64,000 nt of DNA, from the NCBI GenBank assembly GCA_963736005.1, contig CAVTNB010000001.1:1856001-1920000 (forward strand). Direction: 5' to 3'. A program made the translations under genes and the position numbers. Source of the stretch: an uncultured Pseudomonadota bacterium (GTDB lineage: Bacteria > Vulcanimicrobiota > Vulcanimicrobiia > Eremiobacterales > Eremiobacteraceae). How positions within the stretch are numbered: the stretch's first letter is position 1; each line of letters starts with the position of its first letter. The notes under the pieces were generated by a model that searched no databases, had not been told where the DNA came from, and saw only the letters and a list, made by a program, of their open reading frames with translations. Of this stretch, positions 21,177 to 37,694 are shown piece after piece.

Positions 21177-21884
21177 ATGACCGAACTGCGGCCCGCTCGG
21201 CTGCCGAAGATTCTGGTTGTCGACGATGAGGCCACGATTCTGCAAACCTTACGCTTCAATTTGGAGCGCAACGGCTACGCCGTGTGCACGGCGGGTGACG
21301 GCCGTCAAGCGCTCAGCGTTGTCGAAACCGAAAAGCCCGATCTCGTCCTGCTCGATATCATGTTGCCCGTGCTTGATGGGATAGAGGTCTGCCGCGAGAT
21401 CCGCCGCCGCTCGAGCGTGCCCGTGCTCATGCTGACGGCAAAAGATCAAGAGATCGACAAGGTGCTCGGATTGGAAATTGGAGCGGACGATTACATCACC
21501 AAACCGTTTTCCATTTACGAGCTGCTGGCGCGAGTCAAAGCGCACTTACGGCGTCTCGCGCAGCCGAACACGCAGGCCCCCAGTGCCGTGCTGCGCGGCG
21601 GCCCGCTCGAGCTTGAATTCGATCGCCAGCGCGTGACCAAAGCCGGCAAGACCATCGATCTCGCCCCAAAAGAATTTGGTTTGTTGCACGTCTTGCTGCA
21701 AAATAAAGGACGAGTGGTCACTCGACAGGTGCTGCTAGATCGCGTCTGGGGCTTTGACTTTTACGGCGATCAGCAAACCGTCAACGTTCATATCCGCTGG
21801 CTGCGCGAAAAAATCGAAGATGATCCAAACGACCCCAAGCACATCATCACCGTGCGCAGCCGGGGCTATCTGTTTCGCGACTAG
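21177..21884 (+). CDS. phoB: OmpR-family response regulator, PhoB/PhoP type
   Basis: LVVDDE, LLDIMLP, GADDYITKPFS, TVNVHIRWLREKIE; upstream of phoR-phoU-pst. Confidence 0.9.
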   Translation: MTELRPARLPKILVVDDEATILQTLRFNLERNGYAVCTAGDGRQALSVVETEKPDLVLLDIMLPVLDGIEVCREIRRRSSVPVLMLTAKDQEIDKVLGLEIGADDYITKPFSIYELLARVKAHLRRLAQPNTQAPSAVLRGGPLELEFDRQRVTKAGKTIDLAPKEFGLLHVLLQNKGRVVTRQVLLDRVWGFDFYGDQQTVNVHIRWLREKIEDDPNDPKHIITVRSRGYLFRD

Positions 21885-21898
21885 GCCACGAGCGGTTT

Positions 21899-23128
21899 TT
21901 GGCGGTACGAATCTTTCTGGGCGCAGCCCTCATCACCATCATCGTCGCGGTCTTTTTGACTGCCTCGCAAGGCCCCGCGCTCCGCGATACGGTCCTCGTT
22001 GTCGCCGTTGTGATCGCGCTTGTGCTGGCAGTCTTCTTAGCTCCGGTCTTGCAGCGGCCGCTTGCAGACCGTCCATCGGAGGCAATGGCGGCGCCGCCGA
22101 CCGGACCCAGCCTCGATCACATTCTCGACGCCCTTCCGGCAGGCGTTATTACCATCGCAGCGGATGGAAGAATCGTCGTCTTCAACGCAGCGGCGGGAGA
22201 GATGTTCGGTGTGGTTGCGGATCGCGCCAGCGGACGCACTTTGATCGAAATCGTGCGCAATTCGGAACTCGATCGGCGCGTCAGCGCGACATTGCGAGAC
22301 GGAACGACTGAGACGATCGAGCTGACGCACGTCGGCGCTGTGGAGCGCCGGCTGCAAGTCATGACGCGTCCCCTCAATGGCGACCTCAAGCCAGGTGTTT
22401 TGGTCATCGTGACGGACCAAACGCGGATGCGCGAGTTAGAGGCCCTGCGCCGCGAATTTGTCTCCAACGTTTCGCACGAACTGCGTACGCCTCTTACCTC
22501 GGTCAAACTCATGGTCGAAACGCTGCAAAGCGGAGTCGATCTTCTGGCGCAAGAGCAATTTCTAGCAAACATTGGCGCTGAGACCGATCGTATGATTGTC
22601 CTCGTGGAGGACTTGTTGGATCTCGCGCGCCTGGAAAGCCGAAAGCTCGAGCTGCGGCTGAGCACGGTTGACGTGAGCGAGCTCGGCCGGCAAGCGGTTG
22701 CGGCGCAACGTCCGCGGGCGACGGCAGCGCAGATCAATTTGGTCTTTTCGGCTCCGCAAACCTCGCTCCCGATCCTAGCGGATCGAGACAAGCTCTACCA
22801 AGTGCTCACCAATCTGCTCGACAATGCGTTGCGCCACACTCCGGCGCAGGGCAACGTCACCTTAACGGTGGCTGCCCACGATGGAGAGATCACAATCGAG
22901 GTCGCTGATACCGGTTCGGGCATCGCATCGAGCGCACTGCCGCATATCTTCGAACGGTTTTATGTCGTGGACCCGGCTCGGGCCCGCGGTCATTCGGGAA
23001 CGGGTTTGGGTCTTGCGATCGTGAAACACATCATAGAGGCCCACGGTGGCACCATCGCAGCGGAAAGCGAACTGGGTGCGGGCTCAATCTTTCGCTGTAC
23101 GCTGCCCGTGGGTTTACAAACAAGCTAA
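21899..23128 (+). CDS. phoR: Phosphate sensor histidine kinase (2 TM, PAS, HisKA, HATPase)
   Basis: EFVSNVSHELRTPLT, NLLDNA, DTGSGI, IFERFY, GTGLGLAI; TTG start. Confidence 0.9.
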   Translation: MAVRIFLGAALITIIVAVFLTASQGPALRDTVLVVAVVIALVLAVFLAPVLQRPLADRPSEAMAAPPTGPSLDHILDALPAGVITIAADGRIVVFNAAAGEMFGVVADRASGRTLIEIVRNSELDRRVSATLRDGTTETIELTHVGAVERRLQVMTRPLNGDLKPGVLVIVTDQTRMRELEALRREFVSNVSHELRTPLTSVKLMVETLQSGVDLLAQEQFLANIGAETDRMIVLVEDLLDLARLESRKLELRLSTVDVSELGRQAVAAQRPRATAAQINLVFSAPQTSLPILADRDKLYQVLTNLLDNALRHTPAQGNVTLTVAAHDGEITIEVADTGSGIASSALPHIFERFYVVDPARARGHSGTGLGLAIVKHIIEAHGGTIAAESELGAGSIFRCTLPVGLQTS

Positions 23129-23141
23129 GCGGTCCTATAAT
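23113..23141 (+). promoter_or_regulatory. Sigma70-type promoter for phoU
   Basis: TTTACA (23113-18), 17-bp spacer, TATAAT (23136-41). Confidence 0.75.
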
Positions 23142-23156
23142 GCAATGGAATACTGT

Positions 23157-23182
23157 GTAGCAGCGGACCTTTAGGGTCCGCT
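23157..23182 (+). repeat. REP-like hairpin, family A
   Basis: GTAGCAGCGGACCTTTAGGGTCCGCT; one base longer than 933-957. Confidence 0.75.
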
Positions 23183-23200
23183 CACGAGGTACCGCCAACT

Positions 23201-23944
23201 TTGGGTCGTGAGAACTTTCATCGGATCCTGGACGAAACGCAGCAAAACGTTCTGCGCATGGGCAGTTTGGTTGAAGAAGCGATCACCAAAGCGGTGGACG
23301 CATTGTCGCGCAGCGACGTCAAGCTTGCCGATGAGATCTTACGGGCCGACGATTACATTGACGACCTCAATGTTCTGATCGAGACGAACTGCCTGAATCT
23401 GCTGGCTTTGCAGCAGCCCATGGCGAGCGACTTGCGCACCATCGCGGCCATGCTCGACATCATCATCGACCTCGAGCGGATCGGCGACCACGCCTGCGAC
23501 ATTGCCCAGATCACCAAGAACCTTGCCAACGAACCGCAGCTCAAACCGCCCATCGACATTCCCCTGATGGCGGCAAAGGCCCGCGAAATGCTGCGGGAAT
23601 CCCTCGACGCGTTTTCCCATCACGACGCCGAGATGGCCCATGCCGTGCCGCAAAAGGACGACGAGGTCGACCGCCTCTATCGCAAAGTGTTCGCCGAGCT
23701 CATCCAGTTCATGACGAAGGACGCCAAGGCGATTGGCCGCGCCAGCAATCTGCTTTTAGTGGCATTGTATCTCGAGCGCATTGCCGACCACGCAACAAAC
23801 ATCTGCGAGCGCGTCGTTTACATGGTGGAGGGAGTGCCAAGAAAGCTCAAGCGGTCGGTTGTGGAGTTTGACCAGGTGCTCGCCCACAGCGATGAAATCA
23901 TGCAGTCGAGTCCAGGTTCAGTGGACCAACCAGCGGGAGGTTAG
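23201..23944 (+). CDS. phoU: Phosphate signalling protein PhoU
   Basis: QQPMASDLR, DLERIGDHA, DDEVD, LERIADHATNI. Confidence 0.96.
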   Translation: MGRENFHRILDETQQNVLRMGSLVEEAITKAVDALSRSDVKLADEILRADDYIDDLNVLIETNCLNLLALQQPMASDLRTIAAMLDIIIDLERIGDHACDIAQITKNLANEPQLKPPIDIPLMAAKAREMLRESLDAFSHHDAEMAHAVPQKDDEVDRLYRKVFAELIQFMTKDAKAIGRASNLLLVALYLERIADHATNICERVVYMVEGVPRKLKRSVVEFDQVLAHSDEIMQSSPGSVDQPAGG

Positions 23945-23951
23945 GTGAGGT

Positions 23952-24005
23952 CTTAACCTTGCTTAACATGCCCTTAACCTACGCTTGACATCCCTCCGTT
24001 ATCGT
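23952..24005 (+). promoter_or_regulatory. Pho box array plus -10 element for pstS
   Basis: TTAAC at 23953, 23963, 23974 and TTGAC at 23985; TATCGT at 24000. Confidence 0.8.
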
Positions 24006-24080
24006 CGTATTGAGCGTCGTAGAGCATGGCTCCCCTCGGGCCGCCTCTAGTCGGCGTTGCCTCACCGACAGGAGCAAACA

Positions 24081-25115
24081 GTGAATCGTCAACGTTTCTT
24101 ATCGTGGTTCTCAATCTTCGGCCTGCTTATGTTCGCAGCGGTCGGCATTGCCTCGGCCGATCAGCAAATCACGGGCGCAGGTTCGTCGTTTGACAACCCG
24201 TTCTTCCAGCGAGCGTTTTACGAGTACAGCAAAAACAACAGCGGCGTGCAGGTCAACTATCAAAGTATTGGGTCCGGCGGCGGCATCCAACAGTTTACCG
24301 CCAAGACGGTTGACTTTGGCGCTTCGGACGTGCCGCTCCAACCAGCGGAGATGAAAGCGGCTCAAGCATCCAATGGTGACGTCGTCCAGGTTCCCGTCAC
24401 CTTGGGCGGCGTGGTGGTCGCGTACAACGTGCCAAACGTTAACAATCTGAAACTAACCCCCGACGTGCTCGCCGACATCATGCTCGGCAACATCACGAAT
24501 TGGAACGACCCGCGCATCGGCCGCTTGAACCCTGGCGTCACATTTCCGAACCTTCCGATCCTCGTCGTCCATCGCGCGGATGGCAGCGGCACGACGTATA
24601 TTTTCACCGACTATCTGAGCAAGGTAAGCGCCGACTGGAAAAACAAGGTCGGCAACGCAAAGGTGGTCAGCTGGCCAGCGGCGTCGTCGGTTGGAGTCAA
24701 AGGCAACGAGGGAGTCGCTGGGCAAATTAGCAACACTCCCGGCGCGATTGGGTACGTCGAGCTCGCGTATGCGCTTGATAGCAAAATCTCATACGCGGCG
24801 ATCCGCAACAGCGCAGGCCAGTTTGTCGTTCCGACCGTCGATACCGTCCGAAACGCGGCTGCGCACAAACCGAGCGTGAGCCCGCAAGACTTCTCGATCG
24901 TCAACATGCCAGGGGCGGACAGCTATCCGATCTGCGGCTATTCCTGGGTGATGTTGTGGAAGAACCAGTCCGACGCGGCCAAGGGACAAACGCTCGTCAG
25001 TCTCTTCCGATGGCTGGTGACAGATGGACAGGCATTGGCAGTCCGGGTTCGCTACGTCAGTCTGCCGGCGAACGTGCAGGCGGAGGCAACGAAGGCGCTG
25101 GCCAGCATCCACTAG
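24081..25115 (+). CDS. pstS: Phosphate ABC transporter substrate-binding protein
   Basis: TGAGSSF, YQSIGSGGG, DFGASD, HRADGSGTT, GYVE; GTG start after CAGGAG. Confidence 0.97.
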   Translation: MNRQRFLSWFSIFGLLMFAAVGIASADQQITGAGSSFDNPFFQRAFYEYSKNNSGVQVNYQSIGSGGGIQQFTAKTVDFGASDVPLQPAEMKAAQASNGDVVQVPVTLGGVVVAYNVPNVNNLKLTPDVLADIMLGNITNWNDPRIGRLNPGVTFPNLPILVVHRADGSGTTYIFTDYLSKVSADWKNKVGNAKVVSWPAASSVGVKGNEGVAGQISNTPGAIGYVELAYALDSKISYAAIRNSAGQFVVPTVDTVRNAAAHKPSVSPQDFSIVNMPGADSYPICGYSWVMLWKNQSDAAKGQTLVSLFRWLVTDGQALAVRVRYVSLPANVQAEATKALASIH

Positions 25116-25145
25116 TACATCCACCGGTTCCAAGACCTAAGTTCG

Positions 25146-25193
25146 GGAAGGCGGTGCGGCCCTGGCTAACAAACCAGCGCATCGCCTTCCTTT
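25146..25193 (+). terminator. Stem-loop between pstS and pstC (partial terminator or mRNA stabiliser)
   Basis: GGAAGGCGGTGCG pairs with CGCATCGCCTTCC, followed by TTT. Confidence 0.65.
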
Positions 25194-25223
25194 GATACAA
25201 GAGATGACGGACGGTCAAGATCG

Positions 25224-26210
25224 ATGACCCAGAATGGCGCCGACGTTGTGCGTGTACCAGCGGTTACGACGCCGGCGCGTTTGCGTTCGTCCTCAAACCC
25301 CATCGGCGATCGTATCGTGATTGGCGCCTTCTCGGTAAGCGCATGGCTCGTGCTGCTCATGGTCGTCTGGTTATTTGTCACGCTGCTGATTGCAGCGTGG
25401 CCTGGCATCAAGACGGTGGGCATCCACGCGTTTCAAAGCGCTACCTGGGATCCGACGGGCCGTCGATACGGGCTCCTCTCCTTCATTTACGGCACTGCGG
25501 TCACGTCTGCAATCGCGCTCGTGTTGGCTGGGCCAGTCGGCATCGGCGCAGCCCTCCTTTTGGCGGAGATCGCGCCGCGCAGGTTGGCGACACCGGTTGC
25601 CATGCTCATCGAGCTGCTAGCGGCGGTTCCGAGCGTGGTCTTCGGCATTTGGGGTCTCTTTGTGCTCGCACCCGTGATGCGGACCGTGGTCGAACCGGCC
25701 CTCGCGCGCACGCTTGGCTTTCTTCCCCTATTCCAAGGCTACTTTTACGGCGTGGGCATGCTGACCGCAGGCATTTTGCTCGCCATCATGGTGCTCCCAA
25801 CCGTGTCGGCCATCTCTCGCGATATCTTCGAGGCCGTGCCGCGCGACCAACGCGAAGCCATGTACGCGCTGGGAGCCACCAAATGGGAAGTACTAACCCG
25901 CGCGGTCATCCCCTATGCGCGCCCGGGTATTATTGGAGCCCTCGTTCTCGCTCTCGGCCGCGCGATGGGCGAGGCGATGGCCGTGGTGATGGTCATTGGC
26001 AACAAGCCGGCAATTTCGATGTCGCTTTTTTCTCCCGCGTACACGCTGGCCTCCGTTCTGGCCAATGAATTCAGCGAGGCGACGGGGCAAGAATACGTTT
26101 CCGTGCTCGTCGGCATCGGGTCGATGCTCTTCATCGTTAGTATGATCGTCAACGTGTTCGCGCGACTGTTGGTGCGCGGCGTGCGCGGGCCAAAGGGTAC
26201 GCGGGCCTGA
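25224..26210 (+). CDS. pstC: Phosphate ABC transporter permease PstC
   Basis: ELLAAVPSVVFGIWG, REAMYALGAT, GRAMGEAMAV. Confidence 0.97.
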   Translation: MTQNGADVVRVPAVTTPARLRSSSNPIGDRIVIGAFSVSAWLVLLMVVWLFVTLLIAAWPGIKTVGIHAFQSATWDPTGRRYGLLSFIYGTAVTSAIALVLAGPVGIGAALLLAEIAPRRLATPVAMLIELLAAVPSVVFGIWGLFVLAPVMRTVVEPALARTLGFLPLFQGYFYGVGMLTAGILLAIMVLPTVSAISRDIFEAVPRDQREAMYALGATKWEVLTRAVIPYARPGIIGALVLALGRAMGEAMAVVMVIGNKPAISMSLFSPAYTLASVLANEFSEATGQEYVSVLVGIGSMLFIVSMIVNVFARLLVRGVRGPKGTRA

Positions 26211-27046
26211 TGTCGCTCTTCGTCCGGCAAGCTTGGAACGCAATCATGCTTGTCGTGGCATGGTTATGCGCTGGAGTAGCCGCCGCGTTGCTCGCGCTGA
26301 TCGTGATCTATGTTATTCAACGCGGTGGACCGGCGCTCAACGTACAGTTCTTCACGCATCTTCCGACCCCGGTTGGGATCCCAGGCGGCGGCGTCGCCAA
26401 TGCTGCTGTCGGGTCGCTCATGATCATCGCGATGTCTTCGGCGATCGCGATCCCGATTGGAGTCCTGGCCGGGATTTATCTGGCGCTGCTCGGGCGCGGC
26501 TGGTTGGCGCAAGCCGTGCGATTCCTCAGCGACGTCTTGACTGGCGTGCCCTCGATTGCCATCGGGTTGTTTGCCTATACCATCATCGTTGTACCCCAGC
26601 GCCATTTCTCCGCGATCTCTGCCGCGGTCGCGCTCGCCGTCATCATGTTGCCCATTGTCGTGCGCACCACGGAGGAGGCCGTCCGACTTGTGAACCCGGC
26701 AATTCGAGAGGGCGCCCTTGCCCTCGGGATGGAGGCGTGGAAGGCGATCGTGCTGGTCACCGTACCCTGTGCGCGCGCCGGCATCGTGACGGGTTCACTT
26801 CTCGGGATCGCACGCGTTGCCGGTGAGTCGGCACCGCTGCTGTTTACCGCTTTTGGCAGTCAGTTCTGGAGTTTGAATCCCAACGGACCAACGGCTGCGC
26901 TGCCGCTACTCGTCTTTCAATATGCCATCGCGCCGTACAAAGATTGGCAGCTCGCGGCCTGGGGTGGCGCGTTGACGCTGATTCTCCTTGTTTTTGTGCT
27001 CAACATTACCGCCCGGATTATTTTCCCGGCACGGCTGCCACGATGA
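26210..27046 (+). CDS. pstA: Phosphate ABC transporter permease PstA
   Basis: [37 protein letters not shown]. Confidence 0.97.
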
Positions 27047-27840
27047 GCAACGCAACCGAAGCGGCAGAGAAATCTCTCTATACCAAAAATCTCAGCGCCT
27101 GGTATGGCACGCACCTTGCCGTCCGGGGCGTCTCAATGGATTTTCGGCCTGGTCAGATCACGGCGCTCATCGGCCCATCCGGATGCGGCAAGTCGACACT
27201 GCTCCGCTGTCTCAATCGCATGCACGAGATCATTCCTGGAACGCGGGTCGAGGGCGAAGTTTGCCTGGATGGTCAAAACCTTTACGAGCCGGGGGTCAAT
27301 CCGACCGCCATGCGGCAGCGCATCGGCATGGTCTTTCAACGGCCCAACCCATTTCCAACGATGTCGATCCTCGAGAACGTGCTCGCGGGCGTGCGCTTGA
27401 CGAATATGACGAGAAACCGTGGCGTCCTCGCCGAGCTTGCCGAACACAGCCTTCGGAAGGCCGCGCTTTGGAACGAAGTCAAGGATAAGCTGCATGACTC
27501 CGGCGCGTCACTCTCCGGCGGTCAGCAGCAGCGGCTGTGCATCGCGCGCGCGCTCGCCGTCGAACCGGAGGTGCTGCTGATGGACGAGCCGGCATCTGCG
27601 CTCGATCCCATTTCAACGACCAAGATCGAAGACTTAATGCGTGAGCTCAAAGGCGCGTACACGTTCATCATCGTCACGCACAACATGCAGCAAGCGGCGC
27701 GTGTGTCGGACTTCACCGGATTTTTGCTCGCAGGCGAAAATGAACCCGGTCAGCTTATCGAGTTTGACGTGTCCTCAAAGATCTTCACGACCCCAAAAGA
27801 TAAGCGGACCGAAGACTACATCACTGGCCGTTTCGGCTAG
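27043..27840 (+). CDS. pstB: Phosphate ABC transporter ATPase PstB (canonical)
   Basis: [44 protein letters not shown]. Confidence 0.98.
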
Positions 27841-27878: not shown

Positions 27879-27972
27879 CGGGCGGAATCGCTTCCGTCTT
27901 AGAACGCTCAATCGGACTCCTAGCGCAACTCCCGATAGAGGCCGCACCGACACGCCGGTGCGGCCTCTTCTC
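27879..27972 (+). ncRNA. Candidate small RNA, about 90 nt
   Basis: Own promoter, 5' hairpin 27880-27899, C-rich middle with CTCCT, 13-bp 3' hairpin; no family recognised. Confidence 0.4.
27937..27972 (+). terminator. 13-bp GC-rich hairpin, likely terminator
   Basis: AGAGGCCGCACCG-ACACGC-CGGTGCGGCCTCT followed by TCTC (weak U tract). Confidence 0.65.
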
Positions 27973-28096: not shown

Positions 28097-30796
28097 ATGC
28101 GTTTGGATAGATGTGCTGCTCTTTTCGCCGCCCTTGCCATGCTGTTGGGGCTGTCGCCATTGACCGCGGTGGCCGATACGGCCTCGGGCACGAGCGTTGT
28201 GGGCTCGATCGTCGACACGGACGGCGGGCTAGCCATTCCAGGTGCGGGTATCGATTTGTACTGCCAAGGCGCGCATGTACAGCACACAACCACCGCGCGG
28301 GACGGATCGTTTTTCTTCAACGACGTGACCCCGGGGGTGTGCACGCTCTTGGTCACGGCATCGGGCTACCAATTGGCTCGGTCGGCAAACATTCCGGTGG
28401 CTGCCGGAGCGCGGGTCGAGTTCCGCGTCGCCTTGACGAGGATATCATCCGCGGCTGCAGCACGCACGATTGGCCGGGTTATCGTCGCAGCTTCGAACAC
28501 GCTGCAAACCAGCTCGACCATCAACACGCACATCGATCCCAGCATCCTGCAGACGCAGAATTACATGCGGGCGGGCGATGCGCTCATCTCCGTCCCGGGT
28601 GTCAACATAGCAACGAGTTCCTCGCTTGGCGACGACCAGTCCGTCAGCATTCGTGGATTCGAAGCGACTGAAACTGCGACGCTGCTCGACGGCCATCCCA
28701 TTGGGCCGATTGGTGCCTTGGGCAACGGTTTTGATTATCAGGACTCGCCTTTTTTCGGGATCCGCGATATTGAAACGGTCTTCGGCTCGGGGGCAACCGG
28801 AGTCTATGGCGCATCAACGATTGCCGGTGCGGTCAACTTTCTGACCATCAACCCGACCCCGCAGATCCACGCGCTCTTCGAGCAAGGCGCGGGCTCCTAC
28901 GGGAAAGCTCTTACCGGCATACAGACGACCGGGACAGAAAACAAACTCGGATTTGCCTTCTCCCACGGCGTCGAGGGAACGTACGGTCTTTTTCCGCCAT
29001 CCGATCAGGTTGAATCCGGACTCAACGGATCGGACATCCGTGCCGCGACGTTCGCAACGAACACCTATGTCGTGAGCAGTGATTACGTCCTTCGAAACGA
29101 TGTCGGCAAGCTGACGTACGCATTTTCACCGAAGACCAATTTTTTGCTCAGCGCGTACTCCGCGACCACCTGGGATGACAAGAGTGGCAATGGTGATAAT
29201 GACTTTCTCACCTATCAGCAGAACCTCTACAATACGTTCAAGGGGCTCAATGGTAATGGTGGCAAATCCAGCGTTTGCCTCAGCAGCTGCGGAACGCCCC
29301 AAGAAGTCGACGGCAATTGTTCCAATTTCACCCAAGCAGCCCTGAGCGATGCCCCAGCCGGCTTCTCGTGCCTGAACCCGTACAAGTTTTCTCAGGAGAC
29401 TTCGGGGCCCTCAGGCGGCGGCGGCGGCCCTTGGCAGGCGATTCGCAACCAAGACTATCACGCGCGGCTCACGCAAGGGTTGGGGCAGGGCCAAATCAAC
29501 GTCGACACTTACATCGACAAATACGGATTAGACTACAACCGTGCCGCAGCAAACCAGTCGTTCCATAGCGACTTCTATCGAACGACGGGTTTGCTCATCG
29601 ACGATGAGTTTGCGAGCACGCTGCATAACATCGCATTCGGCTACAACTATCAGCACCAGCAGCACACCGGCGACACGTTCCCGTTCTTTGATCAGAACGG
29701 CAATCAGTTTAACATTTTGGCCGCGAACCAAGAGTTTGACCTCAACCAAAATAATTTCTTCGCGCGCGACGAATACACGCCGAATTCGAAACTCTCGATC
29801 TTTGCAAATCTCTGGCTTAATCACTCGGCCAATACGGGTAAGAACTCGTTCGACCCGCGCCTGACATTCCAATTTCGCCCAACCGGCGTGGATATCGTTC
29901 GACTGACGGCGGGGCATTCCAACAGCGAGCCGGATCCATCGCTCCTCTATGCGATGCCGTCGTACAACACGACCCCCAACAACATCAATCCACTGTGCGG
30001 CGCACAACTCAACGGGATAGGGAGCGTCAGCAATCCGACGCTCTCACCGGAGACGGCTACCGACGCAGAGGTCTCCTACGGGCGGCGAATCGGATTGCTC
30101 GATACCCTCGAAGTGGACGTGTATAATACGACAGAGTTCAACGCTCTGTTCAGCGGCAATCTGCCGCTGTCAGCACTGGGGAGCACGCAGGTGCCGCCAA
30201 GTCTCATCGCCGCCTATCTCAGACGCATCCAGAATTTTTGCCATAACAACCCCACGGTTGCCGACCTCGCGGTGAGCACGACGTACAACGCGGCGTCAGC
30301 GCGCTATCGTGGTATTCAGCTTTCGGGCAATTTCGGGCTTCTGCCTCATTTTACGGCGAACGCAGATTATGACGTCCAATCGTCAACCTATCTTGGCGTT
30401 CCCGACGCGATCCTTGCCTCCAATGTGACCATCATTAACGGCTCGCAGATCTACGGGATTCCGCTCCACAAAGCCAACTTGGGCTTCGACTACAACACCC
30501 CAAGCGGTCTCGACGTCGAAATCGACGGGCACTATATTGGAGATGGCAACAGTTACAACCGTCCGCATTTCATCTTCACCAATGCAAGCATTTCCCAGCA
30601 GGCCAACCGCATCACGACAACGCTGGGCATCAACAACATCTTCAACACCGCTGCGCAGCGCTACGGCTATTTCGGACTTGGTGTGTTTCAACCCGAGAAC
30701 AAATTCGGCGCAGACCAAAATGCCTTCGATCAGAGCAGCGAAGAATTTGGTATCCCGCCGCTTCAGTACTTCTTCACGATGACGTACAAGGTCTAG
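28097..30796 (+). CDS. TonB-dependent receptor with N-terminal carboxypeptidase-regulatory-like domain
   Basis: Signal peptide, plug motifs (VPGV, SIRG, LLDGHP, AGAVNFLT), LSPETA, GINNIFN, terminal amphipathic beta strand. Confidence 0.9.
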   Translation: MRLDRCAALFAALAMLLGLSPLTAVADTASGTSVVGSIVDTDGGLAIPGAGIDLYCQGAHVQHTTTARDGSFFFNDVTPGVCTLLVTASGYQLARSANIPVAAGARVEFRVALTRISSAAAARTIGRVIVAASNTLQTSSTINTHIDPSILQTQNYMRAGDALISVPGVNIATSSSLGDDQSVSIRGFEATETATLLDGHPIGPIGALGNGFDYQDSPFFGIRDIETVFGSGATGVYGASTIAGAVNFLTINPTPQIHALFEQGAGSYGKALTGIQTTGTENKLGFAFSHGVEGTYGLFPPSDQVESGLNGSDIRAATFATNTYVVSSDYVLRNDVGKLTYAFSPKTNFLLSAYSATTWDDKSGNGDNDFLTYQQNLYNTFKGLNGNGGKSSVCLSSCGTPQEVDGNCSNFTQAALSDAPAGFSCLNPYKFSQETSGPSGGGGGPWQAIRNQDYHARLTQGLGQGQINVDTYIDKYGLDYNRAAANQSFHSDFYRTTGLLIDDEFASTLHNIAFGYNYQHQQHTGDTFPFFDQNGNQFNILAANQEFDLNQNNFFARDEYTPNSKLSIFANLWLNHSANTGKNSFDPRLTFQFRPTGVDIVRLTAGHSNSEPDPSLLYAMPSYNTTPNNINPLCGAQLNGIGSVSNPTLSPETATDAEVSYGRRIGLLDTLEVDVYNTTEFNALFSGNLPLSALGSTQVPPSLIAAYLRRIQNFCHNNPTVADLAVSTTYNAASARYRGIQLSGNFGLLPHFTANADYDVQSSTYLGVPDAILASNVTIINGSQIYGIPLHKANLGFDYNTPSGLDVEIDGHYIGDGNSYNRPHFIFTNASISQQANRITTTLGINNIFNTAAQRYGYFGLGVFQPENKFGADQNAFDQSSEEFGIPPLQYFFTMTYKV

Positions 30797-30799: not shown

Positions 30800-30853
30800 A
30801 TTAAGCCGCCTTAACCCGCAGTTGATAGTTCCTTAATGTTCGGCCCGTAGACT
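30800..30853 (+). promoter_or_regulatory. Pho box array plus -10 element for the SLH porin
   Basis: TTAAG 30801, TTAAC 30811, TTGAT 30822, TTAAT 30833 (10-11-11 spacing as at pstS); TAGACT at 30848. Confidence 0.75.
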
Positions 30854-30930: not shown

Positions 30931-32664
30931 ATGCGAAAACACCGGCTGCTTCTTGCGTCGGCGGTTGTCTGCGCTGTGTTCGCCCTCGCGATTCCGGCGC
31001 TCGCCGACGATTCTAACCCAGTGCCGGCTCCGGCCGCTTCCGCAACGTCCGCGGCGCCCGACGCAGGGGCGGTCGCGACCGCCAGTCCTGGAAGCGGTGC
31101 GAGCAGTGCAGACGGAATTGGCGTTTCCATCGCCACCGGGGACAACAACCCGTTTGCCGACGTTCCCACGGACTCGTTTGCCTACAAGGCCATCGTGCAG
31201 CTACACGATTTGGGTTATCTCAAAGGGTATCCGGACGGGTTGTTTCATGGCAAACGTAACCTCACACGCTACGAAATGGCGGTCATGGTCGACCGCGTTG
31301 TGAACGAGCTCGAGTACCAGCTCCACGATCCCAACGGAGCGGTCCGAGTGAATGCTGCGGCCATCGCCGATGCCCGCATGCTGCTCGATCAGTATGGGTC
31401 GCAGATCAAGGACCTGCAAACCAAAGAAGCCGCGCTAGATACCCGCCTGACCACCGCGGAGACCACGCTCAACCGCATGCAAATCCATGCGTACGCATAC
31501 GTTCGCGCTCCCGGCACCTATACCGAAACCGTGAGCGCATTCCAGCCAAATGGCACACCGTTGAAGCCTGGGACGATTGTCAAAGATGATGCGCAAAGCT
31601 ACGTGGTCGGCACCAACTCGCGTGGAACGGGCTACTCGGTCTTTCGTCTCATCATTCAAGGCGACCTCGACAAGCAAGCCAGCTATGCCGTGCGTTTGGA
31701 AAACAAGAACTTCTTTGGTCAAGCCAACGTCAACGGCCTCGACAACGTGAATCCAGCCGGGCCAACCACGAGCACGTATAACACAGGTGGGCTCTTACGC
31801 TTGAACTACGCGTATCTGAAGTATCAATTCACGAACTCGCCTGTCTATCTCGAGGCTGGCAAGTACACGCTGCGCAGCGACCCGCTCGGACTCGCGTATG
31901 ACAATGACTACTACAATGGCGGACTCTTTGGTTTCAAGAATTCGAAGGTGTATGGCTGGCTGGGCTTCGGCCAGACCGGAGGCCCGGATCTTGGCAGCAC
32001 TTCTCCGTTTGCCTACGTGCCCGGTCCAGCTTCGAGTGGAGCTGTGCCGAACACCCAATTCATCGTCCTCGCGCATGTCGGCGTGACTCCAACAAGCCGC
32101 GCACTCATAACGGGAAGCTGGGTTGAACTCCAAGGTTATAAGAACAACTTCTGGTGGACCTTGAAGCAGACGTACCAGCCGCTCCAGGCAAATTTGTCAG
32201 TCGGCGCCATAGGCGCCAGCTACCAGTTCGGTCCCTCGCTCAATCTCGCGGTGCAAGGCTTGACTCGATTCGGCAACGACCCGACAACGTTGAAAGGATG
32301 GACCGACAACAAGGCATTCTGGGGCGTTGTCAATGTGGGTCACACGGCTCAAAAAATCAACAACAACTTCATGGAGCTAGGGTGGATCGGTACTGGCGCG
32401 CACTCCGTGCTCAACCCGGAGACGTGGGTCAACGGCACGCCCTTCTACACTTTTTACTATACCGGTCAGGCCAACGACCGTAAGATGGCCTACATCGGGG
32501 TGCACCACTGGGTGAGCAATTACATGCGCGTTGGCCTTAACTACCAATATTGGGGGATCAACACGCCACTTCCGTTGTTCTCAGGCACGGGCGTTCCAGC
32601 TGGTTCGTACATCATGAACAACGACAACCGCGCGCTCTTTCTGAACACGCTCATGCAATTCTAA
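30931..32664 (+). CDS. SLH-domain outer-membrane beta-barrel protein (OmpM/SomA-like porin)
   Basis: Signal peptide, SLH motif FADVPTDSFAY...GYPDG...TRYEMA, coiled-coil stalk, beta-rich region, C-terminal Phe. Confidence 0.88.
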   Translation: MRKHRLLLASAVVCAVFALAIPALADDSNPVPAPAASATSAAPDAGAVATASPGSGASSADGIGVSIATGDNNPFADVPTDSFAYKAIVQLHDLGYLKGYPDGLFHGKRNLTRYEMAVMVDRVVNELEYQLHDPNGAVRVNAAAIADARMLLDQYGSQIKDLQTKEAALDTRLTTAETTLNRMQIHAYAYVRAPGTYTETVSAFQPNGTPLKPGTIVKDDAQSYVVGTNSRGTGYSVFRLIIQGDLDKQASYAVRLENKNFFGQANVNGLDNVNPAGPTTSTYNTGGLLRLNYAYLKYQFTNSPVYLEAGKYTLRSDPLGLAYDNDYYNGGLFGFKNSKVYGWLGFGQTGGPDLGSTSPFAYVPGPASSGAVPNTQFIVLAHVGVTPTSRALITGSWVELQGYKNNFWWTLKQTYQPLQANLSVGAIGASYQFGPSLNLAVQGLTRFGNDPTTLKGWTDNKAFWGVVNVGHTAQKINNNFMELGWIGTGAHSVLNPETWVNGTPFYTFYYTGQANDRKMAYIGVHHWVSNYMRVGLNYQYWGINTPLPLFSGTGVPAGSYIMNNDNRALFLNTLMQF

Positions 32665-32670
32665 AGGCGT

Positions 32671-32696
32671 GGGGCGATTTTCCAATCGCCCCCTAC
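32671..32696 (-). repeat. REP-like hairpin, family C
   Basis: Reverse complement GTAGGGGGCGATTGGAAAATCGCCCC. Confidence 0.8.
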
Positions 32697-32731
32697 AGGT
32701 CTGCTGCTACGAGCAGCAAGAACACGCTCCC

Positions 32732-33541
32732 ATGGCAAGGCCTTGGGAGCGGCTTTTTGTTGGGGCGGCTGGGCTTTTTGCTTGGTGCGTGATCCTCACG
32801 CCATTTTCAATCGTGACGGTTCTCATGGTTGCCGCGCTCGCGGGTCAGCAGCGGCCCGATCCGTTGTTCTTTCTGGGGAATCTCGTCGTTGAGCTTTTTG
32901 CCACGCTGCTCGTCGGGGTTGTGGGAGCGGTTATCGGCGCCAGCATCGGCATTGGCACGGCCCTGCTCACCCAGGAGCTCGTGACAGGAAGGCTGAGCCA
33001 AGCCATCGGCGCTGCCACTTCGGGTCTCTCAGTGTTTCCAGCCGTCGTGCTGGGCTGGTTCGGCGCGACCCTGATTCTGCCGGCTCTTTCCGGCCACACT
33101 CCGGGCGCCGTTTTTGCTGCCGCCTGCGTGGTGGTGTCCATCGCTGTCATTTCGCGATCGAACGTGCTCGCGGTCCGCTTGCTCGGCGCGCTCGCACCTT
33201 CGGTCCGCGAAGCCGCCGCAGCTGCGGGTGCCGGTGCGAGCCGAGTGACGGCACACGTGACGATCCCGGCGTGCAAGCGGCAATTGCTCGGTATCTATGC
33301 AGATGCGCTGTCCAGAGCAGTTGGTGAAGCAGCGGGCGTTTCCGTTGTGTTCCTGGCCGCTGCGCGGGCCGGATATCCCGTGTCTCTCTTTACGATACCG
33401 AGCTCGATCATGGCGCATGCGCACACGATGCAATTGATCGATGCGGGCATCGCGCAATCAGCGCTTGTGGTTTTGGCCTTTGCCGCGACGAGCAAGATCA
33501 TCGCAGCACGCCGAATTGGGAGCCTCCAGTGGGTCTCGTGA
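32732..33541 (+). CDS. Divergent PstC-like permease
   Basis: VFPAVVLGWFG, REAAAAAGA (EAA loop) and SRAVGEA align to PstC; start placed at ATG 32732. Confidence 0.8.
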   Translation: MARPWERLFVGAAGLFAWCVILTPFSIVTVLMVAALAGQQRPDPLFFLGNLVVELFATLLVGVVGAVIGASIGIGTALLTQELVTGRLSQAIGAATSGLSVFPAVVLGWFGATLILPALSGHTPGAVFAAACVVVSIAVISRSNVLAVRLLGALAPSVREAAAAAGAGASRVTAHVTIPACKRQLLGIYADALSRAVGEAAGVSVVFLAAARAGYPVSLFTIPSSIMAHAHTMQLIDAGIAQSALVVLAFAATSKIIAARRIGSLQWVS

Positions 33542-34350
33542 CCGTCGGCACGCCGAAACCGGACACGTTTCGGTCGCGCGACGTGCTTGTCACGGCGCTC
33601 TCGTACATTGCCGGAACGGCCGGCGCGATGGCGTTCGTGGCCGTGCTGGTCGCGCTCGTTGCTCTTGGTTGGCAAGATTTCGCACGAGTGCTTGCGGTGC
33701 CGCAGGGGGCAGGGAGCGCGCTCGCCATTTCGGCACTCGTTCTTGCGATCGCCTTGCCAGTGACGTTTGCGATCGGCCTGTGCGCCGCGGTGTGCGCAAC
33801 GGATCCTAGCATCGGTGGCGTCGCGACTCGCGCGGTGCGTGAGTCCCTGGAGTGGTCGGTAGGCATACCGCCCGTTGTTATCGGCGTGGCCGTTTTTTTT
33901 ACGGTCGTGGCCTTCGTGCACTCATCGGTTGTCGGCGCGGCCGCTCTCGCCCTCATCGTCTTGAATCTACCCAACGCCACTGCCCGTTTGGCACAAGCAT
34001 TCTCGGGCGTTCCCGAAGTGGCGCGCGAAGCTGCAGCGGCCCTTGGAGCCTCGTCTGCGTCAGCGTTTTTTGGGTTGACGCTCCCGCAATCGGCATGGGC
34101 GGTCGCCGCAGTACTCTGTGCTCTCGCTGGGCAGATGGTCGGTGAGACCTCCGCGGTTGTGCTGGCAGTGAGCGCAAGCGGCGGAGCGCAACCACTCTCT
34201 GCCGCGATTTGGCACTTTGCTTCGAATGTGAGCCTAGCTGCGACCGAGGCCGCATCGTGTCTTGTTCTCGTGCTCGTCGTGGCGGCTTGCACGGCGCTGT
34301 CGAAAGATTTTTCCCGCAGACAGCTCGAAACATCGGCGACCAAAACGTGA
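33529..34350 (+). CDS. Divergent PstA-like permease (conserved transport Arg replaced by Gln)
   Basis: GIPPVVIG, REAAAALGA, AGQMVGETSA versus canonical [10 protein letters not shown]. Confidence 0.8.
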   Translation: MGLVTVGTPKPDTFRSRDVLVTALSYIAGTAGAMAFVAVLVALVALGWQDFARVLAVPQGAGSALAISALVLAIALPVTFAIGLCAAVCATDPSIGGVATRAVRESLEWSVGIPPVVIGVAVFFTVVAFVHSSVVGAAALALIVLNLPNATARLAQAFSGVPEVAREAAAALGASSASAFFGLTLPQSAWAVAAVLCALAGQMVGETSAVVLAVSASGGAQPLSAAIWHFASNVSLAATEAASCLVLVLVVAACTALSKDFSRRQLETSATKT

Positions 34351-35126
34351 GCACGCAAGGCGGACCAACGGTCGAGACGAAGCTGGAAGCATCGCAGTTG
34401 CACGTTTGGTTCGGCGATAAGCACGCACTGCGCGGCGTGAATATCTCAGTCGTTGCGGGCAGAACGGTCGCTTTCATAGGGGCATCCAAAAGTGGCAAGA
34501 CGACGCTGCTTCGATCGTTCAATCGGTTGCACGATCTCAATCCGCGAGCGCGGCTGCATGGCAGCGTCAAAATCGACGGAGCTGAGATTTTAGGACCAGG
34601 CGTCGACGTTGCCGCGCTGCGACGCCGTGTCGGAATGACCTTTTCCACACCCACCGTCCTCCCGACATCGATCTTCGACAACGTCGCGTTTGGGTTGCGC
34701 GCAAAAGGGCTGCGCGATCGCATCCTGATCGAAGAGAAAGTAGAGCGTTCGCTGCGTCGGGTGCTTCTTTGGGATGCGGTCAGCCCGCTGCTCGATCGTG
34801 CGCCCTCGGATCTCACCATCGAACAGCTCCAACGGCTCTGTCTCGCTCGCGCGATGGCGCTCGACCCAGAAGTGCTGCTTTTTGACGACCCAACCGCAAC
34901 ACTCGATCCCGTGGCCGGACTCGCCTTCGAAGAAGTCTTCATACCACTGCGCCGCGACCATACCGTGCTCATCGCCACAAATAATTTGGAACAGGCGGCC
35001 CGACTGTCGGACACGACGTGCTATCTCGCCAGCGGTGAAGTCATCGAGAGCGGCGAAACCCCGCTTGTTTTCAGCCGGCCGACGGATACGCGAACCGAAG
35101 ACTTCTTGGCCGGCAGATCGCCCTAA
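34347..35126 (+). CDS. PstB-like ATP-binding protein with degenerate catalytic motifs
   Basis: Clear PstB paralog (GKTTLLRSFNRLHD, QAARLSD, RTEDFLAGR) with LTIEQ, LLFDD, ATNN and TFS; GTGA overlap with the pstA-like gene. Confidence 0.88.
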   Translation: MSTQGGPTVETKLEASQLHVWFGDKHALRGVNISVVAGRTVAFIGASKSGKTTLLRSFNRLHDLNPRARLHGSVKIDGAEILGPGVDVAALRRRVGMTFSTPTVLPTSIFDNVAFGLRAKGLRDRILIEEKVERSLRRVLLWDAVSPLLDRAPSDLTIEQLQRLCLARAMALDPEVLLFDDPTATLDPVAGLAFEEVFIPLRRDHTVLIATNNLEQAARLSDTTCYLASGEVIESGETPLVFSRPTDTRTEDFLAGRSP

Positions 35127-35145
35127 AGCCCTCGAGGAGGCCGTC

Positions 35146-36546
35146 ATGAAGCTGGACGTGACGACGCCAGCGCTCGGACCGTTGCGTGCGGATGGCATGC
35201 ACTACTACAACAACGCTCTTGAGACGATTGGCCATACGCCGCTCGTCAAGCTCAACCGCGTCATGGACAGTGCGTCTTGTCTCGTGCTAGCGAAGGTCGA
35301 GTACTTCAACCCCGGCGGATCGGTCAAAGATCGACCTGTGCTTGCGATGATTCGCGATGCCGAAGAGCGAGGATTGCTCCGGCCTTCGGGGACGATCGTC
35401 GAGGCGACATCGGGCAACACTGGGACGGGACTCGCGATGGTTGCGGCCATCAAGGGCTATCGGTGCATTCTGGTCATGCCGGACAAGGTGAGCGACGAAA
35501 AAGTGCGCTTGTTGCGGGCCTATGGCGCGGAAGTCGTGATCACGCCAACAAAAGCGCCCGCCAGCAGTCCCGAGTCTTATTACGGAGTGGCGGCACGCCT
35601 GGCGAGCGAGATTCCTGGCGCGTTTCAGCCCAACCAATTTGCCAATCTGCTCAATCCGCGAGCGCACGAAGAAACAACCGGTCCGGAAATTTGGCAGCAG
35701 ACCACGGGCAAGATCACCCACTTCGTCAGCGGGATCGGAACCGGCGGCACCATTTCAGGCGTTGCCCACTATCTCAAAGCGCAAAACGCCTCGATCACCG
35801 TGATCGGTGCGGATCCGGAAGGTTCCATTTATTCGGGAGATACGGCGAAATCGTACAAGGTCGAAGGCATCGGAGAAGATTTCTTACCCGCAACCGTTGA
35901 CTTGCGAGCGATTGACCGAATCGAGCGAGTTTCAGATAAGGAATCCTTTCTCATGACGCGCCGAGCATGCCGCGAAGAAGGGCTGCTGGTCGGTGGCTCA
36001 TCAGGCACGGCGCTCGTGGCGGCGCATCGGGTCGTCCGCGAGTTGGCGCCCGAGGCGATCGTCGTTGTCCTTTTGCCTGACAACGGCCGCGGCTACCTCT
36101 CGAAGATCTTCAACGATGAGTGGATGCGAACGAACGGATTTCTGGGTGAAGCGGGCCTCGCCGCAACTGTTGGCGAGGTGTTGCGTGCCAAGGGAGCACT
36201 CCCCAAGTTGATTACGGTCTCTCCCTCCGATACCGTCCGTCACGGCATTGAGCTGATGCGCGAGTTTCAGATTTCACAGATTCCCGTTGTGGAGAACGGG
36301 GATATGGTCGGCAGCATCAATGAGGTGGCCGTGATGCAGCTCATCTTCGATCACTCGGACATTGTGCATGCCGAAGTGAAGGACGTCATGGGGCGGCCCT
36401 TCCCGTTGCTCGATGAGAAAGAAGAGGTCAGCCGCGCCTATCGAGAGCTTTCTCTTGGCCACGCGGCCGTCGTGGTGAGTCACGAAGCAAAGGCGATCGG
36501 GGTGCTCACCAAGATGGACATCATCAACTATCTATCGGTGACCTAA
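35146..36546 (+). CDS. cbs: Cystathionine beta-synthase with C-terminal CBS domains
   Basis: NPGGSVKDR, EATSGNTG, GIGTGGT, EGIGEDF, YLSKIFNDEW, CBS pair; GAGGAGG RBS. Confidence 0.93.
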   Translation: MKLDVTTPALGPLRADGMHYYNNALETIGHTPLVKLNRVMDSASCLVLAKVEYFNPGGSVKDRPVLAMIRDAEERGLLRPSGTIVEATSGNTGTGLAMVAAIKGYRCILVMPDKVSDEKVRLLRAYGAEVVITPTKAPASSPESYYGVAARLASEIPGAFQPNQFANLLNPRAHEETTGPEIWQQTTGKITHFVSGIGTGGTISGVAHYLKAQNASITVIGADPEGSIYSGDTAKSYKVEGIGEDFLPATVDLRAIDRIERVSDKESFLMTRRACREEGLLVGGSSGTALVAAHRVVRELAPEAIVVVLLPDNGRGYLSKIFNDEWMRTNGFLGEAGLAATVGEVLRAKGALPKLITVSPSDTVRHGIELMREFQISQIPVVENGDMVGSINEVAVMQLIFDHSDIVHAEVKDVMGRPFPLLDEKEEVSRAYRELSLGHAAVVVSHEAKAIGVLTKMDIINYLSVT

Positions 36547-36554
36547 GAGCGCAT

Positions 36555-37694
36555 ATGGATTTTGCAACCAAAGCCATCCACGTAGGCCAAGACGCGGATC
36601 CCACAACTGGCGCGACGATCGTGCCCATTTATCAGACCTCGACCTACACGCAGCGCGCGCCGGCCGAGCATCTCGGTTTCGACTACTCGCGCAGCGCAAA
36701 CCCTACGCGCCTCGCGCTCGAACGCTGTCTCGCGTCGCTAGAAAATGCCAAGCATGGCCTGTGTTTTGCAAGCGGTATGGCCGCGACGTCGGCCACGCTC
36801 AATCTCCTCTCGGCCGGCGATCACGTCGTCGTCACCGACGACCTGTATGGCGGCACGTTCCGGCTCTTCGATAAGGTGCTCAGGCGCTACGGTCTCACCT
36901 TCACCTATGTGGATGCGAGCGACCCTTCCGCGATAGCCGCCGCCCTGGGTGGATCCACGCGCATGGTCTGGCTTGAATCACCATCCAACCCGCTCATGAA
37001 GCTGGTCGACCTGAGTGCAACGGCGGCTCTTTGTAAACCGCGCGGCGTCCTCGTTGTGGTCGACAACACGTTTGCGACGCCGTTTTTGCAAAATCCACTC
37101 GACTTGGGGGCGGACGTCGTCGTGCATTCGACCACGAAGTACATCGGTGGGCACTCCGATGCGATCGGTGGTTTTGCAGCAACCAACCGTGACGATCTCC
37201 ATGAGGTGCTAAAGTTTCATCAAAACGCCGTTGGCGCCGTGCCCGGGCCGTTTGATTGTTTTCTGACGCTGCGCGGCGTCAAGACGCTAGCACTGCGCAT
37301 GCGCGAGCACGATCGCAACGCTGGAGCGATCGCCGCCTTTCTCGCCGAGCGGCCAGATGTCGAGAAAGTGTATTATCCGGGACTGGTGTCGCATCCACAC
37401 CATGACTTGGCAAAACGTCAAATGCGTGGTTTTGGCGGGATGATTTCATTCGTTCCCAGTGGTGGTGCCAAGCGAGCGCGAGCAATCGCGATGGGGACGA
37501 AGCTTTTTTCGCTGGCGGAGAGCCTTGGCGGCGTCGAATCGCTCATCAGCCATCCCGCATCAATGACCCACGGCGCTATTCCCAAGGAAGATCGGGAAGC
37601 GCGAGGCGTTTTAGATTCGCTGTTACGCTTGTCGGTGGGGATCGAGTCGTCGGCAGACCTCATCGCCGACCTTGCCCACGCTCTTAGCGTGTAG
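36555..37694 (+). CDS. Cystathionine gamma-lyase / gamma-synthase family PLP enzyme
   Basis: PIYQTSTY, YSRSANPTR, FASGMAA, DNTFATP, HSTTKYIGGHSD, LAESLGGVESL. Confidence 0.93.
   Translation: MDFATKAIHVGQDADPTTGATIVPIYQTSTYTQRAPAEHLGFDYSRSANPTRLALERCLASLENAKHGLCFASGMAATSATLNLLSAGDHVVVTDDLYGGTFRLFDKVLRRYGLTFTYVDASDPSAIAAALGGSTRMVWLESPSNPLMKLVDLSATAALCKPRGVLVVVDNTFATPFLQNPLDLGADVVVHSTTKYIGGHSDAIGGFAATNRDDLHEVLKFHQNAVGAVPGPFDCFLTLRGVKTLALRMREHDRNAGAIAAFLAERPDVEKVYYPGLVSHPHHDLAKRQMRGFGGMISFVPSGGAKRARAIAMGTKLFSLAESLGGVESLISHPASMTHGAIPKEDREARGVLDSLLRLSVGIESSADLIADLAHALSV

Follow-up and report, generated by a model that had tools for sequence, protein, structure and literature searches.

We describe PstC2A2B2, a Pst paralog that is conserved throughout a bacterial family and has lost the residues for ATP hydrolysis. 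It is encoded in a 64,000-nt stretch of DNA (hereafter the window; contig CAVTNB010000001.1, positions 1,856,001 to 1,920,000) from an uncultured member of the Eremiobacteraceae (assembly GCA_963736005.1; genome G000, 2.84 Mb in 6 contigs), whose relatives carry the record titles Candidatus Eremiobacterota or Vulcanimicrobiota. A first-pass annotation of the sequence had noticed three uninterrupted, overlapping open reading frames (ORFs) and had taken them for paralogs of the canonical pstC, pstA and pstB genes about 7 kb upstream. Both observations held: pstC2, pstA2 and pstB2 are uninterrupted, span 32732-35126 and overlap by 13 nt (pstC2/pstA2) and 4 nt (pstA2/pstB2), their best NCBIfam families are PstC, PstA and PstB, and pstC2 lies 7.5 kb from the start of pstC1 (25224). 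To judge from these sequences, they encode a second Pst-type ATP-binding cassette (ABC) membrane complex derived from pstCAB. As to its function, we tentatively favour a non-hydrolysing, Pst-like sensor or regulator acting on Pho signalling, a reading in which our confidence is limited.

Loss of the hydrolytic motifs in PstB2

PstB2 scored 261.2 bits against the PstB model TIGR00972, below the equivalog cut-off of 343.2 bits that PstB1 exceeded with 366.8 bits, and 71.3 bits against the ABC nucleotide-binding domain PF00005, above the cut-off of 25. Its closest solved relative in the PDB was E. coli PstB (9k3x_C, E 4.8e-62), and its identity to PstB1 was 41%. Alignment agreed with the first-pass annotation both on what had been retained and on what had been replaced. 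The Walker A sequence (GASKSGKTT), the A-loop aromatic residue, the Walker B Asp, the D-loop and the PstB C-terminus (RTEDFLAGR) were kept, as were the EAA loops of the permeases. The Q-loop Gln was replaced by Ser, the LSGGQ signature by LTIEQ, the catalytic Glu by Asp (so that Walker B reads DD instead of DE) and the H-loop His by Asn. Tested for the motifs of a competent ABC ATPase, PstB2 passed for Walker A (GxxxxGK[ST]) and failed for the other four of the five, namely Q-loop, signature, catalytic Glu and H-loop. PstB1 of the same genomes was canonical in 14 of 15 cases, the exception (L049) being an ORF-extraction problem. A different anion ABC family, such as those for sulfate or molybdate, was also considered for the module and rejected, since no other family model gave PstB2 more than 110 bits, against 261 bits for PstB; the permeases matched CysT, CysW and ModB weakly and were scored higher by the PstC and PstA models of NCBIfam.

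Without LSGGQ the ATP sandwich cannot form normally, and without the Glu, His and Gln hydrolysis should be very slow. Retention of the P-loop, the adenine-stacking aromatic, the Mg-binding Asp and the D-loop makes it most likely that PstB2 can still bind nucleotide. Formation of a canonical ATP sandwich is not expected in the absence of LSGGQ, nor is ATP hydrolysis, with the Q-loop Gln missing, Asp replacing Glu and Asn replacing His. Since all of these defects lie in one polypeptide, no consensus site is expected either in a PstB2 homodimer or in a PstB1/PstB2 heterodimer. The homodimer would have two degenerate sites, and ATP-driven import by alternating access would thus be lost.

The first-pass annotation had proposed orthologs as the check on whether the degenerate residues are conserved. 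They are, both in 28 unique PstB2 orthologs and in 94 clusters at 90% identity, which comprise the matches of at least 53% identity among 5.8 billion proteins (Table 1). The Q-loop and signature positions were variable among orthologs, as expected of relaxed sites. The scaffold positions stayed nearly constant over the 94 clusters, with the Walker A glycines in 93, an A-loop Tyr or Phe in 80, the Walker B Asp in 93 and the D-loop Asp in 91. The 26 matches ranked next all had the Walker A Lys, the Q-loop Gln, Asp-Glu and the H-loop His, together with LSGGQ (24) or LSLGQ (2). In a 50%-identity library of 1.84 billion proteins, the PstB2 family was a single representative scoring 448 bits, and the next scored 301 bits. 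The degenerate motif state is the conserved state of the PstB2 family.

Table 1. Residues at five key positions of PstB2 in two sets of sequences
Position	28 unique orthologs	94 clusters at 90% identity
Q-loop Gln	0/28	0/94
LSGGQ	0/28	0/94 (dozens of variants)
Catalytic position	Asp 26, Asn 1, Glu 1	Asp 90, Glu 2, Asn 1, Pro 1
H-loop	Asn 26, His 1, Gly 1	Asn 89, His 1
Walker A Lys	Lys 25, Arg 3	Lys 65, Arg 28

With PstA2 as query, 61 related genomes yielded 20 loci from the family to which the window belongs (a count that includes L014 and L020, whose protein sequences recur in the titled public records L037 and L038). All 20 carried pstA2 and pstB2 and 19 carried pstC2, the contig of the remaining locus (L017) beginning inside pstA2; the overlapping start and stop codons of the triad were identical throughout. 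A scan of species-representative genomes returned 25 loci with PstB2 identities of 52-95%, all from this phylum by title or by content, followed by matches of at most 47% identity that were canonical PstB of other phyla. At each of these 25 public loci all three genes were present where the contig reached, with a PstA2-type gene between pstC2 and pstB2. When 301 genomes of the phylum were searched with a PstB2 profile, 22 of the 23 family genomes gave PstB2-level scores (344-488 bits), the other one (G001, 89% complete) having a PstB1-level match only. No PstB2 was present at any of eight loci inspected in the sister family, where the matches of 305-330 bits were canonical PstB with LSGGQ and Asp-Glu; the remaining ~190 sister-family genomes were judged by profile score. 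The module is confined to one Eremiobacterota family and is fixed there.

Between G000 and G002, the ratio of nonsynonymous to synonymous substitution rates (dN/dS) was 0.076 for pstC2, 0.116 for pstA2 and 0.102 for pstB2, compared to 0.038-0.098 for pstS, pstC1, pstA1, pstB1 and the receptor, lyase and tldD genes of the same region. The ORFs were intact at every locus with the exception of L012, identical to L032 (one genome, 70% complete, 8 contigs), in which pstC2 is spread over two reading frames; this split could be an assembly frameshift error or a real break. In a FastTree phylogeny of 121 PstB sequences, the 28 PstB2 proteins formed one clade with support 1.0 on a long stem. The first-pass annotation had argued that the absence of frameshifts spoke against decay or assembly noise, and had stated that orthologs with canonical motifs, scattered stops, a dN/dS near 1 or a place in an unrelated, active ABC family would count against its view. 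What we found instead were degenerate orthologs, intact frames, a dN/dS of about 0.1 and a distinct PstB-like clade.

Permeases, transcription and neighbouring genes

PstC2 and PstA2 scored below the equivalog cut-offs of their NCBIfam models (196.45 and 193.45 bits, respectively; scores in Table 2). PstC2 had no Pfam match at E≤0.001, and its closest solved relative was E. coli PstC (9k3s_B, E 3e-4). PstA2 matched BPD_transp_1 with 34.1 bits (cut-off 26.4) and, in the PDB search, E. coli PstA (9k3s_A, E 8e-4), an iron ABC permease being slightly better. A crude hydropathy count gave several hydrophobic spans for each protein, and the EAA loops, REAAAAAGAG... in PstC2 and REAAAALGAS... in PstA2, were among the best conserved columns of the ortholog alignments. 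Over 45 pairs from 10 genomes, mean pairwise identity was 0.40 for PstC2 against 0.69 for PstC1, 0.35 for PstA2 against 0.72 for PstA1, and 0.62 for PstB2 against 0.78 for PstB1. The second permeases are relaxed but still constrained, and their rate of evolution is about twice that of the canonical pair.

We then considered the residues that handle inorganic phosphate (Pi). In the cryo-electron microscopy structure of the E. coli transporter, Pi is coordinated by PstA Arg220 and PstC Arg237, and mutating them reduces both the binding and the import of Pi (PMC12976172). Aligned with the E. coli locus (L109), PstA2 of the window has Gln at the Arg220 position, as the first-pass annotation had claimed in calling the transport Arg replaced, and the Arg pair is incomplete; among 19 orthologs the residue was Gln in 14, Glu in 2 and Arg in 3, so that 16 are without Arg. 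The loss does not extend to the PstC side. PstC2 of the window keeps the equivalents of Arg237 and Glu241, of which the former is present in 14 of 17 orthologs and the latter in all 17.

The claim that the module has no pstS of its own stood for the window genome, which has a single PstS (encoded in the canonical operon), one PhoU and one Pit. It did not stand for all relatives, since L040, L047 and L048 carry a second, intact pstS upstream of pstC2. The encoded PstS2 keeps all eight positions that we take to be the Pi ligands of E. coli PstS. In the genus with the adjacent pstS2 (L024-L026, L047, L048), PstA2 keeps Arg220 and PstC2 keeps Arg237 and Glu241, and the Walker A Lys of PstB2 is replaced by Arg.

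The module stands behind a canonical Pho cluster, phoB-phoR-phoU-pstS-pstC1-pstA1-pstB1, that spans 21177..27840 on the forward strand, and behind two outer-membrane genes (Table 2). The hairpin 3′ of pstB1 is likely, from its sequence and predicted fold, to be a terminator that parts the canonical pst operon from the downstream genes preceded by Pho-box-like repeats. Upstream of the porin gene, the repeats TTAAGCC.., TTAACCC.., TTGATAG.. and TTAATG.. follow each other at 10-11 bp spacing (30801..30836, forward strand). A relaxed pattern (TTAA-N6/7-TT[AG]A) matched only four intergenic sites in the 64 kb, at 21110-21123, 23953-23988, 27983-28025 and 30801-30836, and these precede phoB, pstS, the TonB-receptor-like gene and the SLH porin gene, respectively. 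Similar repeats occurred before the pstS, receptor and porin genes of related loci and never before pstC2, and the same pattern search found none in the porin-pstC2 spacer. We regard the TTAA direct repeats, presumably similar to the cyanobacterial and Bacillus Pho boxes, as a candidate for the Pho box of this phylum. The first-pass annotation had placed the triad directly behind a Pho-box-controlled SLH porin: the adjacency and the Pho-box-like repeats are there, and control of the porin by PhoB is plausible from the sequence. A search for sequencing runs with this sequence listed no RNA run. The SLH porin gene is probably the first gene of a transcription unit with pstC2A2B2. Because the spacer hairpins have no U-tract, they point to cotranscription with the porin, possibly attenuated, and the spacer is a possible attenuator or processing site.

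Table 2. Features of the pho-pst region, in window coordinates
Feature	Position	Strand	Basis
phoB	21177-21884	+	Pfam/NCBIfam match
phoR	21899-23128	+	Pfam/NCBIfam match
phoU	23201-23944	+	above NCBIfam equivalog cut-off
pstS	24057-25115	+	above NCBIfam equivalog cut-off
pstC1	25224-26210	+	above NCBIfam equivalog cut-off
pstA1	26210-27046	+	above NCBIfam equivalog cut-off
pstB1	about 27040-27840	+	above NCBIfam equivalog cut-off; canonical motifs
hairpin 3′ of pstB1, 13 bp, GC-rich, followed by UUCUC	27937..27969	+	sequence and RNA fold
TonB-dependent-receptor-like outer-membrane gene (CarboxypepD_reg + Plug)	28097..30796	+	Pfam
SLH-domain outer-membrane porin gene, directly 5′ of pstC2	30931..32664	+	Pfam SLH 28.7 bits; weak NCBIfam por_somb match
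porin-pstC2 spacer, 67 nt, with two hairpins	32666..32726	+	fold -30.6 kcal/mol, z = -2.59
pstC2, ATG start, 269 aa, divergent PstC-like permease	32732..33541	+	TIGR02138 42.7 bits
pstA2, GTG start, 273 aa, divergent PstA-like permease	33529..34350	+	TIGR00974 52.1 bits
pstB2, GTG start, 259 aa, PstB-like nucleotide-binding subunit	34347..35126	+	TIGR00972 261.2 bits

Downstream of pstB2, a cystathionine beta-synthase gene (CBS) with CBS domains begins 19 nt away (ATG at 35146) or, if a later ATG is used, 70 nt away. It is followed by a gene of the cystathionine gamma-lyase/synthase type (CGL); the two genes, in the region 35127-37694, come after pstB2 with no terminator-like site. All 25 related loci that extend far enough preserve the linkage of pstB2 to CBS and CGL. 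Conserved synteny had been another check proposed in the first-pass annotation, and every related locus examined showed the same order, phoBRU-pstSCAB1-[variable]-pstC2A2B2-CBS-CGL-iclR-tldD, with the triad always ending the Pho cluster behind Pho-type genes. The flanks were constant and the insert varied by genus (L031, L033, L037, L040, L041, L043, L048, L053), consisting of an SLH porin with or without a TonB-type receptor, a CarboxypepD_reg/OprD-like porin, a PF04185 phosphoesterase or a second pstS. At L049 (7215-9980), the second permease pair follows pstB1 directly, with no insert and with a stop-free frame running from pstB1 into the permeases; by its sequence this arrangement looks like the original tandem duplication.

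At the eight sister-family loci inspected (L110-L117; genomes G037, G036, G180, G124, G225, G126, G059 and G040), the canonical pstB lay directly beside phoB-phoR, either alone, or with permeases 33-38% identical to PstC1 and PstA1, or as two tandem pstB genes, and PhoU was encoded elsewhere in the genome. We also noted that four records with the module (L029, L036, L042, L046) are titled 'uncultured proteobacterium', 'Proteobacteria bacterium', 'Candidatus Binatus sp.' or 'unidentified bacterium', labels that are likely outdated or wrong.

Comparison with known systems

The module shares with the E. coli PstSCAB-PhoU-PhoR system its subunit families, the C-A-B gene order, the EAA loops, the PstB-specific C-terminus and a phoBRU-pst cluster. 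It differs from E. coli Pst in being a natural, fixed paralog beside an intact canonical system, with the Q-loop, signature, Glu and His all changed, all three proteins below the equivalog cut-offs and, in the window genome, neither a pstS nor a phoU of its own. The failed equivalog scores, together with the four failed catalytic-motif tests out of five, are the reason why we do not file it as PstCAB proper. It also resembles transport-dead E. coli mutants: the positions of PstA Arg220 and of the catalytic Glu179 are changed here, and laboratory mutants of Q160 and E179 lose transport and still signal (PMC5775613).

Single degenerate, non-hydrolytic ATP sites are familiar from the first nucleotide-binding domain (NBD1) of CFTR and SUR, from TAP1, from NBD1 of MRP1 and from bacterial heterodimeric exporters. 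Their hallmarks are Asp for the Walker B Glu, a switch residue other than His and a degenerate signature, and they are associated with stable ATP binding and with regulation or gating. PstC2A2B2 differs from such proteins in two ways: they keep one consensus site per dimer, whereas a PstB2 homodimer would have none, and PstC2A2B2 is a type I importer-like complex with separate permeases.

Two further systems combine duplicated Pst components. Like Enterococcus faecalis with its tandem pstB1 and pstB2, the window has two non-equivalent PstB paralogs in one Pho/pst locus; in contrast, both enterococcal proteins resemble verified ATPases, are ~60% identical and share one PstCA pair, as described in PMC12096839, whereas the second PstB here has lost the hydrolysis motifs and comes with its own permeases. 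Like Streptococcus pneumoniae with Pst1 and Pst2, the genome encodes two Pst-type ABC systems. However, each pneumococcal system is reported to be a Pi uptake transporter encoded by an operon that ends in a PhoU-family gene (PMC4913102), whereas the present module lacks the catalytic residues and, in this genome, a pstS and a phoU of its own.

The first-pass annotation knew of no described system of this form. In agreement with this, a full-text literature search, by which most subscription journals are not covered, returned no published account of a degenerate PstB paralog or of this module, and none of a complex without any consensus ATP site. The phenomenon is nevertheless not unique to this locus, because public protein data hold other degenerate PstB-like families. 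Of the 149 representatives from outside the family that matched the PstB2 profile best, 42 depart from the canonical residue at no fewer than two of the five key positions (Walker A Lys, Q-loop Gln, LSGGQ, Walker B Glu and H-loop His), three of these being truncated sequences. A group of 14 clusters (P0209 and P0285-P0297, one labelled Candidatus Paceibacterota) has neither Q-loop Gln nor LSGGQ and carries an H-loop Asn in all 14, and the next 32 matches (P0298-P0329) all combine a Q-loop Ala and an H-loop Asn with an intact LSGGQ and Asp-Glu. Both groups are like PstB2 in their PstB-like length and C-terminus and in the loss of the Q-loop Gln and H-loop His. They differ from it in sequence, with 35-45% identity to PstB2, no closer than canonical PstB. 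FastTree placed the P0209 and P0298 groups together with PstB2 in a clade of 36 (support 0.86), a grouping that may reflect long-branch attraction. Scans of metagenome contigs with P0209 and P0279 returned no match.

Candidate functions of PstC2A2B2

The first-pass annotation had proposed a non-transporting module acting as a phosphate or nucleotide sensor, a PhoU decoy or a feedback subunit that mixes with canonical PstCAB. Its proposal is supported in part, by the intactness and conservation of the genes, by purifying selection and by the loss of the hydrolysis residues in essentially all orthologs; the sensor, decoy and mixing roles themselves are candidates. The signalling reading draws on E. 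coli, in which transport-dead Pst variants still signal with a sign set by the conformation in which they are locked, and in which PstB Q160K and E179Q abolish transport and give constant, opposite Pho signals (PMC5775613). By analogy, PstC2A2B2, whose expression is most likely driven by the Pho-box promoter of the preceding outer-membrane gene, would be a conformational module anchored in the membrane that responds to PstS and Pi or to nucleotide and talks to PhoU and PhoR. The canonical PstSCAB1 would do the transport and PstC2A2B2 would serve the signalling side. In the simplest version, which follows from the missing signature motif, the nucleotide-binding domains (NBDs) would be unable to close, leaving the complex in a resting, NBD-open and inward-facing state. 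Such a state reads as 'phosphate sufficient' in E. coli, and the module would then damp the Pho response once this is induced. Where a genus has pstS2 and both Arg residues are intact, the module may be a true PstS-dependent Pi receptor. More speculatively, and with less confidence than we place in a sensor or regulator as such, the Eremiobacteraceae might have split import (PstSCAB1) from a dedicated non-hydrolysing receptor that passes PstS docking or nucleotide state on to PhoU and PhoR. This would make PstC2A2B2 the first natural pure signal transducer of the ABC importer type with both ATP sites degenerate, and a member of a wider, unrecognised class of degenerate PstB proteins. A complex prediction for PhoU (7-row alignment) with PstB2 (18-row alignment) gave a score of 0.00; its controls were not folded, and we count it neither way.

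Several observations weigh against a signalling role, which has itself been drawn from sequence and from the analogy with E. coli. The catalytic Asp and the H-loop Asn are conserved and not variable, and they could belong to a catalytic cycle that is slow or altered. Purifying selection on the permeases in the closest pair of genomes may mean that conservation extends beyond a membrane anchor. The Arg/Glu pair of PstC2 is present in 14 of 17 orthologs, and on the membrane side the genus with the adjacent pstS2 has, by its sequences, what looks like a complete Pi-handling pathway. The tight and conserved CBS/CGL linkage is unexplained and could indicate another role. Finally, the branching of PstB2 with respect to canonical PstB is uncertain, given the long stem, the use of FastTree and the biased outgroup sample.

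Some of these points favour a second explanation, which we regard as rather unlikely and yet the strongest competitor: PstC2A2 would be a transporter or channel that carries phosphate or a related anion across the inner membrane without canonical ATP hydrolysis. Placed behind a Pho-induced porin or receptor, it could be a facilitator or efflux valve gated by nucleotide or PstS, or it could run a very slow ATPase cycle based on the Asp and Asn. The position of the triad directly behind outer-membrane uptake genes fits such a role, as do the intact pstS2 of some genera with all eight presumed Pi-binding positions kept, the retention of the PstC2 residues and of PstA2 Arg220 in the pstS2-bearing genus, the non-random conservation of the catalytic Asp and Asn, and purifying selection on both permeases. 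On the other hand, four independent elements of hydrolysis and closure have been lost together, and the free variation of the Q-loop and signature among orthologs argues against a new catalytic solution. Also difficult to reconcile with transport are the change of the Walker A Lys to Arg in 28 of 94 clusters, permeases that evolve about twice as fast as the canonical ones, the loss of Arg220 in most orthologs and the presence in the genome of both PstSCAB1 and Pit.

We consider it unlikely, and less probable than transport, that PstB2, with or without PstC2A2, mixes with the canonical system, whether as a PstB1/PstB2 heterodimer, by docking on PstC1A1 or by titrating PhoU, to throttle or tune Pi import once the Pho response is on. 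PstB2 is the best conserved subunit of the triad and keeps the PstB-specific segments next to the Q-loop and at the C-terminus, the genome encodes only one PhoU and one PstS, and E. coli PhoU binds PstB (PMC5775613). In contrast, the invariable company of two permeases of its own, with EAA loops and overlapping codons, points to a complex of its own.

Decaying duplicates or an assembly or annotation artefact are highly improbable: the lost catalytic motifs, the fast permeases, the split pstC2 of L012/L032 and the lack of a PstB2-level match in G001 would suit them, but decay is contradicted by the low dN/dS and the conservation, that is, by ORFs intact at every other locus, dN/dS of 0.08-0.12, PstB2 identities of 52-95% across genera, one motif state in 94 clusters, and conserved synteny and overlapping starts.

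Phosphate sensing through Pst, PhoU and PhoR is unsettled, and the leading idea, that the conformation of the transporter and not flux is read, comes from engineered transport-dead mutants. Evolution has seemingly made such a transport-dead-like variant and kept it for long beside a normal transporter, with changes at the same kinds of positions as in the laboratory mutants, namely PstA Arg220, the catalytic Glu of PstB and the signature region. PstB2 proteins are publicly annotated as 'phosphate ABC transporter ATP-binding protein' or 'ATP-binding cassette domain-containing protein', and under either the signalling or the transport reading such annotation overstates what metabolic models of this uncultured soil and peat phylum can infer. 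If PstC2A2B2 transports, it would be an ABC-type complex that works without the canonical catalytic set. If it signals, it would be a natural system that separates sensing from transport, with an ABC importer scaffold reused as a pseudo-enzyme.

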